Positions 3,881 to 21,720 of a stretch of DNA of 32,000 nucleotides are shown one piece after another. This DNA comes from Opitutia bacterium KCR 482 (lineage in GTDB: Bacteria > Verrucomicrobiota > Verrucomicrobiia > Opitutales > Intestinicryptomonadaceae). The translations under genes were made by a program, and so were the position numbers. Each line of letters starts with the position of its first letter. The stretch's first letter is position 1. The notes below the pieces were generated by a model. That model searched no databases. It saw only the letters and a list, made by a program, of their open reading frames with translations, and was not told the DNA's origin. The stretch covers positions 1,770,001-1,802,000 of the forward strand of contig CP149973.1 in NCBI GenBank assembly GCA_029269845.2, read 5' to 3'.

Positions 3881-4810
3881 ATGCTGATTTTCTGTACGGG
3901 CGCGACTGGGCTTGTCGGCTACAATTTCATAAAGGCGGCGTCGGAGGCGGGGCACCGCGTCGTTGCGGTTTCGCATTCGCACGGGCTTCCGCAGTTCAAG
4001 GGGGTCGAACAAATGAAAATCGACCTCGCCGACACCGCGGCTGTTCAACGCGCGGTTCTCGACGCGTTCCCCGAAATGGTCGTAAACTGCGCGGCGATTT
4101 CAAGCCCCGCAGACGTGGACGCAAAGCCCGAACTCGCCGAGAAAATGAACACGGTGCTCCCCGAAACTTTGGCGATCCTCGCCAAGCACGTCAACGCGCG
4201 CCTGATTCACATTTCGACCGACATGGTTTTCGACGGCTCGTGCCCGCCCTACAAAAATACCGACGTTCCCATGCCAGCAACCCTCTACGGCACAACGAAG
4301 CTCATGGCGGAAAAGCGGGTTCTGAAAATCTGCGCGCCGTCGAGCGTCGTGTTGCGCCTAAGCCACGTCAGCGGAAACAGCCTCACTACAAAACGCTCGC
4401 TGCACGAAAAGCTTTTGCGCTCTTGGGCGGCGGGAAAGCCCGTATCGGCGCGGACGGACGAAATCAAGTGCCCGCTTTCCGCGTCGAGGCTCGCCGACCT
4501 GCTTTGCGAGCTTTGCGAACGCCCGAACGTCAGCGGCATTTACCACTACGCGGGGCTTGAACCCGTCAGCCGCTACGACATGGCCGCGCGCATCGCAAAG
4601 CACTTCGGGCTTGACCCGCAAAAATACGTCGTGCCGACAACGGGCGACAGGCGCGTAGATTTGACCATGGACATGTCGTGCCTTGCCGCCCGCGTGAAAA
4701 CGCGCTCGTGCATGTTCGACGAACTTTTCGACGAAATGCGCGTGCCCGCCGACGTCGAAGACTGGCTCAAAGCCGAGGGAAAGCTGCCCGTCAAACGCTT
4801 CAAACTGTGA
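3881..4810 (+). CDS. NAD(P)-dependent SDR, RmlD-like (dTDP-4-dehydrorhamnose reductase family)
   Basis: The start is set at the internal ATG that gives MLIFCTGATGLVGYNF (a GxxGxxG Rossmann motif). It has a YGTTK (YxxxK) catalytic motif and RmlD-like length (309 aa). The upstream part of ORF 3824.. looks like non-coding leader. Confidence 0.75.
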   Translation: MLIFCTGATGLVGYNFIKAASEAGHRVVAVSHSHGLPQFKGVEQMKIDLADTAAVQRAVLDAFPEMVVNCAAISSPADVDAKPELAEKMNTVLPETLAILAKHVNARLIHISTDMVFDGSCPPYKNTDVPMPATLYGTTKLMAEKRVLKICAPSSVVLRLSHVSGNSLTTKRSLHEKLLRSWAAGKPVSARTDEIKCPLSASRLADLLCELCERPNVSGIYHYAGLEPVSRYDMAARIAKHFGLDPQKYVVPTTGDRRVDLTMDMSCLAARVKTRSCMFDELFDEMRVPADVEDWLKAEGKLPVKRFKL

Positions 4811-5835
4811 TGGCGCGTGATTCGAAAACGTCGGCGTTGTCGGGGCTTTTTGCGGCTTTCGCGCTTCTTGCGTTCTCCGCGTGTTTTGCGCGGGCGGAGG
4901 TGTCGGCGCAAAACCTTTCGGGCGCGGCTTTGAAGCCGCTTGCGGAGTCTTTCCGCGCGGGGCTTGCAAAGTGCGGCGCAAAGTCGGGCGCGGTTTGCGC
5001 GGCGGCTCGCGGGCGGATAATTTTCGGCGCGGATTTTTCGGAGGGAAGCGGGCGCGTCTACCCGCTCGGAAACACGTCCCAGCCTCTGCTTTCGCTTATG
5101 CTGGCGGCGATGGAATCCGACGGAGAATTGGCGGCGGACTGGCGCGTCGCGCGGCACTGCTCGTATTTCAAGCCCGCCGACAGCCCCGCGACTTTCGACG
5201 ACCTTCTCTCCATGCGGGCGGGCTTCGAGCCTTACGCCGATTCGCTCGTTCCGCCCGACGCCGACGCGTTCGAATTTTTCGGAATCGCAGCCCAGTTGCC
5301 CCGCGCCGCAAACGGTTTCTTCGCGAGGTCGCGAGCAAGCGCGGCTTTGGCGGGCTACGCAATGGCGTATGTTTCCGACAAGAAATCGCGCAATCTGAAA
5401 AAGGCGTTCGCCGCGTGCGCAAAAAAATACCTCTTCGAGCCGCTTGAATTTTCGTCGCCGCGCTTCGCGTCTTTCGACAAGCCCGACTTCCCCGCGACCG
5501 CGTTCGCGCTGACCGTTCCCGACTGCGCAAAATGGCTCGAATGCGAAACCGCCGACAGCCCGAAAATCGCGACCCGCGCCGCGCTGGACTCTCGCCGCAA
5601 CCCTCGCGATTCCGACTGCAAATTCGGCGGCGGCTGGACTTCCTCGACCGAATGCGGCGTCTCGTTCCGCGTGTCGGCGGACTACTTCGAGGGCTGCGCG
5701 AACGTCGTTGCGGTGTTCCCCGCCGAGCGCGTCGCGGTGGCGTTTTTCGCCGCCTCGCGCGACGCAAAGGGCGCGGCGAAACTCTGCGCCGACTCGCTTT
5801 CGCAATTCGTAAAAATTCTTTCAAACGCACAATGA
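4810..5835 (+). CDS. Exported hypothetical protein, possibly a degenerate beta-lactamase/serine-hydrolase fold
   Basis: The ATG overlaps the upstream stop (TGATG). A signal peptide is present (MARDSKTSALSGLFAAFALLAFSACFARA). The layout around GNTSQPLLSLMLAAMESDGEL...FDDLLSMRAG resembles class-C-like serine hydrolases, but SQPL sits where SxxK is expected. The family call is weak. Confidence 0.55.
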   Translation: MARDSKTSALSGLFAAFALLAFSACFARAEVSAQNLSGAALKPLAESFRAGLAKCGAKSGAVCAAARGRIIFGADFSEGSGRVYPLGNTSQPLLSLMLAAMESDGELAADWRVARHCSYFKPADSPATFDDLLSMRAGFEPYADSLVPPDADAFEFFGIAAQLPRAANGFFARSRASAALAGYAMAYVSDKKSRNLKKAFAACAKKYLFEPLEFSSPRFASFDKPDFPATAFALTVPDCAKWLECETADSPKIATRAALDSRRNPRDSDCKFGGGWTSSTECGVSFRVSADYFEGCANVVAVFPAERVAVAFFAASRDAKGAAKLCADSLSQFVKILSNAQ

Positions 5836-6809
5836 AAACCGACTTTTTTAAATCAGTTCTGCTCTTCGTTTCCGCCGCTTTCGCGCTTCCGGCGTTCGGC
5901 TCTTTGAAATTCGCGTTCGTTGCTCCCGACGCCCTCACGCCGCAAAATGCCGCCGTCTTCAACGGCATGCGCGACGCGTTTGCGGAGCTTCAATCGCGCT
6001 ACGGAAAAACCTTCGAGGTCGAGTACATCGACGCCCGCCTCTCCGCCGAAAACCAGGCAAAACAGCTCGGCGGGGCGTATATAGGCGGCTTTGCGGGCGC
6101 GGTCGTTCTGCCCGTAGAATGCGCGAAGCCGCTTTCCGAAAAAATTTCCGCGCTGGCGGACAGGGGCTTTCCCGTAGCGCTCGTAGGCTCGGACATGCCC
6201 GAATCGAAACGCCTGTGCTTTGTAGGCGACGACCGCGACTCTTTCGGGAAAATTCTTTCCGGGCTTATCGCCGAGCTTTCGCGCGGAAAAAAATTCTCGC
6301 TTTTCTGCTATTTCAGGGGCGCGCCGTCCGCCGACATTCCGCCGACCGACACCGCCGAAATCTCCGCGCTTTTGGGCGGCGCAATGCCGCTCGACGCGTA
6401 CAAAGAGGCGGTTTCGAAATACAATCCCAAGCTTGTCTCCGCCGACTACTACTCGGTTTACGCGCGGCAAAATTCCGTGGAAATCATGCGGCGCGACGAC
6501 TACGGCGAGCTGTTTTTCAGCCCCTATTTGCTCGCCGACATGCAGCCCATTAAGCGCGATTCCGACAGGCTTTTCGCTGTTTGCGTAGGCGCGGTTCCGC
6601 AGCTTGAACGCTATCTTGCCGACTCCTCCGTCAACGCGTGCGTTTTCGGCGACTACTACGGCTGGGGCTATTTTGCGGCGCGCGCACTCGCGGAAAAGGC
6701 GGTCGGGAAAAGCAATCCCGAAAAAGAAGTGCGCTTGTTGAAGCCGCTCGTTGCGACCCCAAAAAATCTCAACTCATTCATCTCAGATTGGAAACGCTGG
6801 ATAAAGTAG
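5832..6809 (+). CDS. Exported periplasmic-binding-protein-like protein (type 1 sugar-binding/LacI-like fold)
   Basis: The ATG overlaps the upstream stop by 4 nt. A signal peptide is present (MKTDFFKSVLLFVSAAFALPAFG). The pattern FAFVAPD...NGMRDAFAEL...GAVVLPVE...ALADRGFPVALVGSDMP...CFVGDD is typical of type 1 periplasmic binding proteins. Confidence 0.6.
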   Translation: MKTDFFKSVLLFVSAAFALPAFGSLKFAFVAPDALTPQNAAVFNGMRDAFAELQSRYGKTFEVEYIDARLSAENQAKQLGGAYIGGFAGAVVLPVECAKPLSEKISALADRGFPVALVGSDMPESKRLCFVGDDRDSFGKILSGLIAELSRGKKFSLFCYFRGAPSADIPPTDTAEISALLGGAMPLDAYKEAVSKYNPKLVSADYYSVYARQNSVEIMRRDDYGELFFSPYLLADMQPIKRDSDRLFAVCVGAVPQLERYLADSSVNACVFGDYYGWGYFAARALAEKAVGKSNPEKEVRLLKPLVATPKNLNSFISDWKRWIK

Positions 6810-6818
6810 GCGCGTTAG

Positions 6819-7196
6819 ACGGCGCGTGAAAGCACTTCCCTAAGGGCGTTTCCCTGTACGCCCAGACCGCTCGCGTACGAAAGTACGCCACGCGCCCTGT
6901 GCGCACAGGAAAGCCACCCTTATGAAAGCACTTTGACGCGCCTAACAAGTGAGTGCTATCGCACGAAGATTTTTAGAGTGCGCTGGGATAAAAGCGGGGT
7001 GGGGCGGTAGGCGGAGAATTTGCGTTTGCGGATTTTCGTTTTTTTTATCCGCGCAAAGCGCGTCTATTTAATTAGTTTCTGTCTGATATTCGTCAATTTC
7101 AATTCCAGTAATTGCCAACGGCAATACGAACTAAAACAGAAAAGGCGCGGTTATAGCCGCGCCGCATAATCACAGAAAGGAGCGAAGCTCCGACGA
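6819..7196. repeat. Copy A of a conserved, hairpin-rich non-coding element of about 0.4 kb (candidate structured RNA or intergenic repeat family)
   Basis: Collinear same-strand alignment with 19605-20066. The first 77 nt differ by 2 substitutions and 1 loop indel. The last ~90 nt differ at ~10 positions. Hairpins are conserved at 6873-6888, 7028-7052, 7111-7125, 7144-7163 and 7179-7191. No ORF is shared between the copies. Confidence 0.85.
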
Positions 7197-7272
7197 GTGG
7201 CGCGGCTCGCGTCTGAAATAAGGCTTGCATAATGGAGGTGTGGTGTTAAGGTTTTGGATAAAAGTACAGTTT

Positions 7273-19605: not shown

Positions 19606-20066
19606 CGGCGCGTGAAAATACTTCCCTAAGGGCGTTTCCCTGTACGCCCAGACCGCTCGCGTACGATAAGTACGCCACGCGCACGGGGCGTGAAAGCACC
19701 GTTGATGCGGCGTTTCGCGAGTGTCTCAGACCGCTTACATACGCCAAGTATGCTGCGCGCCCTGTGCCACTCGCAAAGCCGCCGCCTGAACGGCACTTTG
19801 ACGCCCCTAAAATTACAGCGCACGGCGCGGAAGATTTTTAGAATGCGCTGGGAGAAAAGTGGAGTTATTGGGTTGGTGAGCCGACTTGTGTTTGCGGATT
19901 GCCGTTTTTTTATTTATCCGCGCGGAGCGCGTCTATTTTAATTTGTTTCTTGCAAACATTCGGCAATCCCTATCGTCAGTAATTGCCGCAGGCAATACGG
20001 ACTAATCCAGAAAAGGCGCGGTTATAGCCGCGCCGAATAATCACAGAAAGGAACGAAGTTCCGACG
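19605..20066. repeat. Copy B of the conserved non-coding element, with its 78-nt 5' module tandemly duplicated
   Basis: It aligns with 6819-7196. Module 1 is 19605-19682 and module 2 is 19683-19760 (50/78 gapless identities by hand count). Conserved hairpins lie at 19659-19675, 19738-19752, 19894-19921, 19981-19995, 20014-20033 and 20050-20062. Confidence 0.85.
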
Positions 20067-20242
20067 CCGTGCAGGCTGCAGCCTGCCTCGCGCCTTGGGG
20101 CTTGACTTTTTGGGGGGAGTGGGCAAAATGAGTTGATGTTGGAGGGCGATATACGCTTGGGGGTATTTGAGCCGATGGCGTGGTATTCTTGGGTGTATGT
20201 GGCTCTTGTTTTTCAAAAATAAAATCAAAGGAAGAGAAGAAT

Positions 20243-21613: not shown

Positions 21614-21665
21614 TCCGCAAAAAGGCGGTTGCGGAGAATGCTCCCCGACCGCCCGCGCGGCAAAC

Positions 21666-21703
21666 AAAAAAGGCTTTCGGATTTCCCCGAAAGCCTTTTT
21701 TTT
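21666..21703. terminator. Bidirectional rho-independent terminator between convergent genes
   Basis: An A-run is followed by stem AGGCTTTCGG (21671-21680) pairing with CCGAAAGCCT (21687-21696), then T8. Confidence 0.8.
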
Positions 21704-21720
21704 GCGCCTCGTTTTAAGCC

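Follow-up and report, generated by a model that had tools for sequence, protein, structure and literature searches.

If the letters of an intergenic segment can be folded into helices, is the pairing real, on which strand is it maintained, and to which of the flanking genes does it belong? These questions arise for positions 6821-6942 of the window (the whole 32,000-nucleotide stretch that was analysed), where an initial annotation had proposed base-paired structure on the strength of three compensatory double substitutions between two copies of an element, one of the helices having two competing partners. The motifs on which that proposal was built are all present in the sequence at the coordinates listed below. 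The segment in question turns out to be a single unit of an intergenic repeat, a 122-nt hairpin (module H), that exists in many copies within a restricted clade. The window contains two copies, A and B, of an intergenic element of ~400-450 nt, with the following parts:

6810-7270: copy A, between a periplasmic-binding-protein gene (end 6809) and a Gcw_chp outer-membrane-type gene (start 7273)
6821-6942, minus strand: long hairpin module H of copy A, a 122-nt imperfect hairpin of ~45 pairs with conserved internal loops (folding, covariance model, covariation)
6873-6888, no strand assigned: apical hairpin of H in copy A, GCGTAC-GAAA-GTACGC (covariation)
6890-6896, no strand assigned: internal ACGCGCC of copy A, the proposed competing partner, inside the invariant inner motif GCGCCCTG
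6943-6999, plus strand: linker of copy A, with a small hairpin GTGC-TATC-GCAC (6953-6964), GAAGATTTTTAGA, an enclosing helix AGTGC/GCGCT, and GGGATAAAAG
7011-7046, plus strand: intrinsic terminator of copy A, stem 7014-7037 and then a T-run (terminator scan)
7047-7195, no strand assigned: P-module of copy A, a separate repeat module (repeat and alignment results)
7050-7062: P-module hairpin CGCGC-AAA-GCGCG
7112-7124: P-module hairpin TTGCC-AAC-GGCAA
7144-7163: P-module hairpin GGCGCGG-TTATAG-CCGCGCC, terminator-like on the minus strand
7179-7191: P-module hairpin GGAGC-GAA-GCTCC, the third of the proposed helices
19606-20240: copy B, between an LptF/G permease gene (end 19605) and a TAT-signal Gfo/Idh/MocA oxidoreductase gene (start 20243)
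19607-19682, minus strand: half-module of copy B, joined to the module that follows and made up of the 5' arm, the apex and 7 nt from the 3' arm
19685-19807, minus strand: long hairpin module H of copy B, a divergent allele with ~65% identity to copy A and the same fold
19808-19910, plus strand: linker and terminator-like T-run of copy B, aligning with the family linker and terminator
19916-20066, no strand assigned: P-module of copy B, including GGCGCGGTTATAGCCGCGCC (20015-20034) and GGAAC-GAA-GTTCC (20050-20062)

A hairpin maintained by compensatory changes

Upon folding, 6821-6942 and 19685-19807 each yield one continuous imperfect hairpin, of which two of the three proposed helices turn out to be parts. 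The pairing of GGCGCGT (6821-6827) with ACGCGCC (6936-6942), represented in copy B by GGGGCGT (19685-19691) with ACGCCCC (19801-19807), is the base of this hairpin, and GCGTAC-GAAA-GTACGC (6873-6888), the counterpart of which is CATAC-GCCAA-GTATG at 19738-19752, is its apex. Both helices covary in a larger alignment, which comprises 29 of the ~36 distinct full hairpins and was used in the plus orientation (A2) and as the reverse complement (A3). Specifically, the basal pair is CG in 20 copies and GC in 6, with an AU/UA double change at neighboring pairs, and the apical pair, columns 62/74 of A2, is GC in 18 copies and AU in 10. Double compensatory changes are found at 18-19 of the 45 pairs of H among the 29 distinct full copies; the covariation score and the percentage paired were matched by none of 500 column shuffles, and sliding the partner by 1-3 columns brings the pairing down to 26-58%. 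Independent variation of the paired positions, which had been named at the outset as fatal to the proposal, is not what the 29-copy alignment shows. That compensatory double substitutions reflect base-paired structure holds over ~36 distinct copies, far beyond chance: the base-pairing of H is genuine and under selection.

The helical segments of H exist as many alleles, the two arms of which always match; each of CCCTGTACGCC, CACAAACGCCC, GCGCACGTCC, GCGAGTGTCT, CCCCGCATGCG and GCGAATGGTA, for example, is accompanied by its own complement. What stays invariant are three internal-loop motifs and two feet, the helical segments being free to change if both arms change together. In plus-strand letters, the feet read ACGG..GCGTGAAAG and CACTTTGACGC..CCTAA, and the invariant pairs are GGCGTTTC/AAAGCC and CAGACCGC (6864-6871)/GCGCCCTG. 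The apical loops are 4-5 nt long and mostly of the G...A form on the plus strand (GAAA, GGAA, GATAA, GCCAA). No T-run follows H on either strand, the adjoining sequence being TAAAA on the plus strand and, on the minus strand, GTCT with the flank behind it. The identification of H itself as an intrinsic terminator, a GC-rich hairpin with a U-tract directly behind it, was rejected; the definition does apply to the separate terminator at 7014-7046.

A pattern derived from three module copies detected 13 loci in three uncultured Opitutales/Verrucomicrobiota assemblies (UMGS1069, UBA4654, SI.O52), and a second pattern detected 20 gut-metagenome loci (13 contigs from one metagenome assembly, OGFM01); these loci yield the ~36 distinct full hairpins. 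By the strict pattern, there are 4-5 loci per genome. A covariance model built from A3 recovers further, more diverged copies in the same loci, with at least three arrays in 7 kb of one of them (L008). Each genome has a modest number of copies, on the order of tens of loci. In the window, the model finds only the two full copies, with minus-strand scores of 147.5 bits for copy A and 142.7 bits for copy B. A search of the whole window against Rfam gave 0 matches at the gathering threshold and chance-level matches only at E up to 10, e.g. MIR949 with 25.7 bits versus a gathering score of 100. No match to the element was found in plasmid and phage collections; in viral contigs, 12 matches to a 16-base pattern were dismissed as chance, none of them forming the hairpin. 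Two 2026 preprints on the mining of non-coding elements with genome language models mention neither Opitutales nor the element.

Among LptF/G homologues, the one with 83% amino-acid identity is followed by a diverged, decayed copy, and those with 80%, 72% or 67% identity by none, the sites being too diverged for insertion boundaries to be drawn; therefore, the family is confined to a narrow clade. The retention of the element after LptF/G in relatives with flanks that are 81-99% nucleotide-identical, and in the one more distant case (83% amino acid), suggests either a host-level function or long persistence. At a distant LptF/G homologue (L048), the downstream region contains, at ~3975-4065, what looks like a minus-strand tRNA gene, flanked by a ~240-nt repeat that is duplicated at 4100-4330 and 4350-4580.

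The proposed switch and the neighboring genes

The 5' strand of the basal helix, GGCGCGT, had been credited with a second perfect partner, ACGCGCC at 6890-6896, and hence with a switch-like choice between two helices. The second partner does exist in copy A, and 94.6% of the cells of the alignment could pair with the internal site. However, the alternative helix (columns 5-11/80-86 of A2) shows 0 compensatory changes and is no different from 500 shuffles; the internal ACGCGCC belongs to the invariant motif GCGCCCTG, which has CAGACCGC as its partner and does not covary with the 5' strand. All seven C-to-G variants of the 5' strand are mismatched to the internal site, the distal partner compensating in six of the seven. 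Because the internal site is shuffle-like and is broken by all seven variants, the two-state switch is unsupported. An RNA leader in which GGCGCGT alternates between the two ACGCGCC partners and regulates the downstream gene would, moreover, have to act across the intrinsic terminator that stands between H and that gene, on downstream genes that differ in identity and orientation, and there is no Rfam match for it; it appears scarcely credible. A riboswitch or another cis-regulatory 5' leader was likewise rejected, given that H abuts the upstream stop codon and is followed by a terminator, that the neighboring genes are unrelated, and that the mutually exclusive helices lack covariation support. 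As the discovery of a regulatory RNA, be it a switch or a riboswitch, the proposal fails.

The leader role that had been implied for the downstream gene is contradicted by the position of H, which tracks the upstream stop codon, a canonical intrinsic terminator separating it from the downstream gene. In 17 of 19 distinct gene contexts, the first paired base of H is found -12 to +15 nt away from the stop codon of a co-oriented gene, or 47 nt away in a single case, and at three loci an ORF ends inside the hairpin; the exceptions are L001 and L011, where the end of the hairpin faces the start of a divergent gene. The upstream genes, among which are those for LptF/G, periplasmic binding protein, Na+/H+ exchanger, AraC regulator, DHODH, FabH, Asd, SAH hydrolase, GlgC, GpsA and H+-PPase, have no functional theme in common. 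Among the 151 ORFs within 4 kb of the copies, there is no recurrent protein family, the recurring neighbor proteins being only orthologues and spurious ORFs within the repeats. H belongs with the upstream gene, not with the downstream gene.

Several details of these contexts were noted along the way. Where the upstream ORF stops inside the hairpin, it does so at the TGA of GCGTGAAAG or at the TAG of TTATAG (L009 2941-2949, L023 2972-2980, L015 13106-13117). At L011, there is no co-oriented gene before the array, which faces the start of a divergent polysaccharide deacetylase gene, and a strong plus-strand terminator, GACCGCAGGTTAGCTTGCGGTC followed by T9, lies directly upstream of the array (~476-520 in element orientation). 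In the window, the longest ORF of the periplasmic-binding-protein gene starts at 5532, but ~100 implausible, arginine-rich residues (5532-5831) come first; a start near 5832 agrees with the Pfam domain and with a signal-peptide-like beginning.

On its 3' side, the H hairpin or hairpins are followed by a fixed order of parts, namely, a small hairpin of the form GYGC...GCRC, the arms of which covary, GAAGATTTTTAG, an enclosing helix with G.U pairs on the plus strand, and the canonical terminator, GCGGAGATTCC...GGGATTTCCGC followed by a T-run. The terminator is kept in 14 loci, with G.U on the plus strand at several pairs and almost no A.C. The P-module lies beyond the terminator and contains the third proposed helix. 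That this helix covaries was borne out in a 15-locus alignment (GGAAC/GTTCC in 7, GGAGC/GCTCC in 4, each intermediate in 1, diverged in 1). Its assignment to the same element as the other two was not, because the P-module is also found without H, in L027 (around 2008) and L031 (around 9496); therefore, this helix is outside the H element.

The P-module itself, which is repeated at many loci, comprises CGCGC-AAA-GCGCG with TCTATTTTAATT, TTGSC-NNN-GSCAA and GGARC-GAA-GYTCC, as well as a GC-rich palindrome that is preceded by an A-run and resembles a terminator when read on the minus strand. The module may serve as a promoter/leader or as a bidirectional terminator cassette. A search for sigma-70, sigma-54 and Bacteroidetes-type promoters on both strands of the linker and the P-module turned up no convincing, correctly spaced candidate. 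Between the P-module and the downstream gene, small GC-rich hairpins, GGCGCGGCTCGCGCC and GCAGGCTGCAGCCTGC, recur in varied order (window 7200-7214 and 20072-20087; L003, L017, L023-L025, L032), so that short repeats make up a mosaic throughout the intergenic region. In genomes of the UMGS1069 and SI.O52 types, the arrays end with yet another conserved module, GTAGCCGAGCTTACAAAGCATTGTGCGATTGGGAGGGGATTGCCGACCTTTGCTTGTCAAAGGTGGCAA (L004, L009, L030), a hairpin with a G.U pair on the plus strand. Elsewhere in the window, a 25-nt inverted repeat with A-run and T-run flanks, located after the Gfo/Idh/MocA gene (21656-21711), looks like an ordinary bidirectional terminator.

The strand on which the hairpin folds

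The initial annotation had implied a plus-strand RNA; the pairing pattern fits the minus strand. In the same register, standard pairs make up 98.9% of the cells on the minus strand versus 86.0% on the plus strand. The consensus folding energy is -78.3 versus -53.4, and the mean minimum free energy is -81.0 versus -64.5 kcal/mol, the minus strand being the more stable one in all 29 copies, by 9-25 kcal/mol each. For H of copy A, the minimum free energy is -86.4 kcal/mol on the minus strand (z -8.6) versus -65.9 on the plus strand, and, with DNA parameters, the minus strand again exceeds the plus strand (-45.8 versus -31.8). Since counts of cells overstate independence, positions were counted as well: A.C on the plus strand, that is, G.U on the minus strand, occurs in at least six sequences at 9 pair positions, whereas G.U on the plus strand is that frequent at none. 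Singleton departures are balanced, 6 versus 4, plus one G.U position seen three times, and are likely to be recent mutations. On the minus strand, G.U accounts for 13% of the cells and includes a conserved 5'-UG/3'-GU tandem.

Could such an asymmetry result from a mutation bias of the region? The linker and the terminator 3' of H provide an internal control: over 14 loci, they contain 62 G.U versus 2 A.C cells on the plus strand, and their mean minimum free energy is -38.3 on the plus strand versus -27.5 on the minus strand. As this bias is opposite to that of H, a regional mutation bias cannot explain the reversed pattern of H; the G.U bias also implies that the plus strand is transcribed and terminated there. 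The pairing of H is selected on the minus strand, which is complementary to the upstream mRNA; a weak point is that the apical loops, being mostly G...A, are GNRA-like on the plus strand.

Turnover, relatives and possible function of the repeat

The arrays mix full units with 5'-truncated, 3'-truncated and tightly abutted ones. In copy B, the half-module (19607-19682) that lies ahead of the full hairpin is 97% identical to copy A, and the same array of half-module and hairpin, with the same junction, is found after LptF/G in the window and after GpsA in L033. After the periplasmic-binding-protein gene, three strains (the window, L031 and L003) have three different hairpin alleles within flanks that are 95-99% identical: the window and L031 share 96% identity along a stretch taking in the hairpin, their upstream genes being essentially identical, and the figure for L003 is 95%. 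The last residues of the periplasmic binding protein vary between these strains, WKRWIK* versus WKRWLR* (window 6795-6820 versus L031 and L003), because of rearrangement at the left edge of the element. In L016, L025b and L027a, the copies are chimeric, with mismatched basal stems from two alleles. Copies exchange sequence among themselves; several contigs end within the repeats, so that some of the arrangements could be assembly artefacts. There are neither target-site duplications nor sharply defined ends, the left flank being NNA|CGG with variable NN and the right flank always TAA. Where units are partial, their junctions differ from case to case and suggest illegitimate recombination instead of precise transposition.

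Comparison with known systems places the element as a previously undescribed family of structured, mosaic, multi-copy intergenic repeats, the nearest relatives in kind being REPINs and BIME-type mosaics. REP/REPIN systems have a cognate gene for RAYT, a Y1 HUH transposase, that belongs to the same genome and as a rule has repeats on both sides; at the loci of the element, no RAYT was found. The element shares with them the many extragenic copies per genome and the hairpin with compensating arms: REPINs are ~100-nt hairpins with common compensatory changes in the arms, predicted folding as ssDNA or mRNA, and oriented tandem arrays, and both are extragenic hairpins of ~100-120 nt with many copies per genome (PMC3116915). 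However, REPs are defined as short palindromes with a conserved GTAG (or CGTC) tag (PMC3733652), and the element has neither a GTAG tag nor a tagged short REP. CGTC can be read on the minus strand in two places, the 5' arm and the sequence immediately 3' of the hairpin, and is not a short-REP tag in either; a palindrome within the arm (GGGCG..CGCCC) is seen in some alleles only. Furthermore, a REPIN consists of two short REP palindromes with invariant 16-mers at the ends and a variable spacer, whereas the invariant blocks of the element are internal loops along one hairpin, the arms of which lack consistent palindromes of their own; the copy number is lower, and the orientation is fixed to the upstream stop codon. 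BIMEs consist of REPs and extra-REP motifs, and they and pneumococcal BOX elements, like the element described here, are mosaics of a few module types in variable number, with partial units, that lie between genes and often 3' of them. Unlike these, the element has a 122-nt hairpin instead of a 35-nt REP as its module, its arrays contain a canonical terminator of their own, and its hairpin and linker/terminator modules carry opposite strand signatures.

ERIC/IRU and Correia-type elements are likewise imperfect palindromes of ~100-150 bp that form long RNA hairpins in transcribed intergenic regions. These resemble the element in size, in hairpin length and in location, but their terminal inverted repeats are kept in sequence and they are bordered by TA target duplications; in the element, the arms covary and no target duplication is seen. 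For the same reason, i.e. no consistent target-site duplication and covarying arms in place of conserved terminal inverted repeats, identification as a MITE was rejected. A CRISPR-like array, a retron and a bridge or guide RNA scaffold were rejected as well: no reverse transcriptase, Cas protein or transposase is associated with the element, and its variable parts are the paired helices, the loops being conserved.

The functional form of H has to be sought among several alternatives. We tentatively favor a REPIN/BIME-like mosaic repeat that would function as the single-stranded hairpin of the minus strand, most likely as ssDNA with a trans-acting protein. Such a hairpin could be read by an unlinked, putative transposase or recombinase that would act in trans and copy or recombine the units; the alternative form of the same strand would be an antisense RNA. 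The plus-strand transcript would contain a deliberately weaker, A.C-punctuated hairpin before the element's own terminator and would serve only as a generic 3' end structure. We favor ssDNA because it fits a mosaic repeat that forms arrays with half-units, has invariant internal loops and lacks a minus-strand promoter. Against it count the 13% of G.U with its UG/GU tandem, which is more RNA-like than DNA-like, the modest copy number, the lack of target-site duplications and of sharp ends, the heterogeneous junctions, the retention after LptF/G in relatives, the GNRA-like loops on the plus strand, and the finding of no transposase or recombinase at the element loci. In addition, replication that runs in the same direction as the neighboring genes would expose the plus strand, and not the minus strand, as lagging-strand template; GC skew over 32 kb was uninformative as to the direction of replication. 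The frequent G.U and the tandem, both typical of RNA, make antisense RNA a serious rival: a structured minus-strand RNA, antisense to the upstream gene, would start from a putative promoter within the linker or P-module and would either function as a stable RNA, antisense or 3'-overlapping, or be the target of an RNA-binding protein. With nearly all cells in standard pairs on that strand, with G.U exchanging with A.U and G.C as in RNA helices, and with the minus strand of the hairpin being sense to the adjacent gene at L001 and L011, this is possible, if on the unlikely side; for the minus linker contains no sigma-70-like promoter with correct spacing (TTATCCC-N8-9-CTAAAAA only), in that direction the array is preceded by a minus-oriented terminator-like hairpin of the P-module, the long hairpin has no U-tract behind it on the minus strand, and arrays of half-units would be odd for an RNA gene.

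It is rather unlikely that H acts on the plus strand, as a 3' UTR element of the upstream mRNA that would stabilize the 3' end or serve as a roadblock for the terminating ribosome, in the way described for the REP sequences near stop codons in E. coli. The fixed orientation next to stop codons, the clear plus-strand RNA structures of the linker and the terminator after H, the GNRA-like apical loops and the folding of the plus strand, still at about -64 kcal/mol, all fit this possibility, and the A.C positions could then be intended helix-weakening mismatches or protonated A+.C wobbles. Yet it leaves unexplained why A.C is used at nearly all of the retained non-Watson-Crick positions in preference to G.U or other mismatches (9 versus 0) and why, in a related array type of other genomes, arrays run past the first terminator; the array at L011, for its part, lies directly downstream of another plus-strand terminator. 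Very improbable is the view that H is a passive DNA palindrome, in which a DNA-level process such as intra-strand template switching or cruciform repair preserves the symmetry and no single-stranded function is under selection. The mosaic alleles and frequent rearrangements do testify to active recombination among copies, but such processes erase mismatches, whereas here bulges, a G.G/C.C mismatch and ~9 wobble positions are all kept throughout the alleles, with an asymmetry between the strands.

By analogy with the bottom strand of integron attC sites, H could also be a strand-specific folded ssDNA recombination site, which we consider improbable. The attC sites have a conserved structure with variable sequence, are 57-141 nt long and lie at, or overlap, the stop codon of a co-oriented ORF, all as in the element. 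The functional folded strand of attC is the one complementary to the mRNA, which is the same in the element. Under this analogy, an unlinked recombinase or HUH enzyme would read the conserved internal loops and would move or exchange cassettes of hairpin, linker and terminator between the 3' ends of housekeeping genes. The identification as attC proper, judged by a 5' R'' (RYYYAAC), a 3' R' (GTTRRRY), cassette ORFs and an IntI integrase, was rejected: the R''/R' core order is absent, GTTAG...CTAAC being found only in copy A and in reverse order, the neighbors are housekeeping genes and not cassettes, and no integrase was found among the neighboring ORFs at the element loci. If the attC-like reading were true, the repeat would constitute a system whose cassettes are 3' UTRs and terminators in place of genes.

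Under the favored reading of H as a REPIN/BIME-like mosaic repeat, the repeats would be a source of assembly breaks in these genomes and would make the C-termini of proteins vary. Should the strand signature hold, selection acts on different strands in neighboring modules of a single repeat, favoring the mRNA strand for the linker and terminator and its complement for the hairpin. Such a pattern, if true, points to a life as ssDNA or as antisense RNA for a hairpin that is located a few bases from stop codons, and makes the family a tractable model for the persistence and recombination of REPIN-like repeats in an uncultured lineage of gut Verrucomicrobiota.
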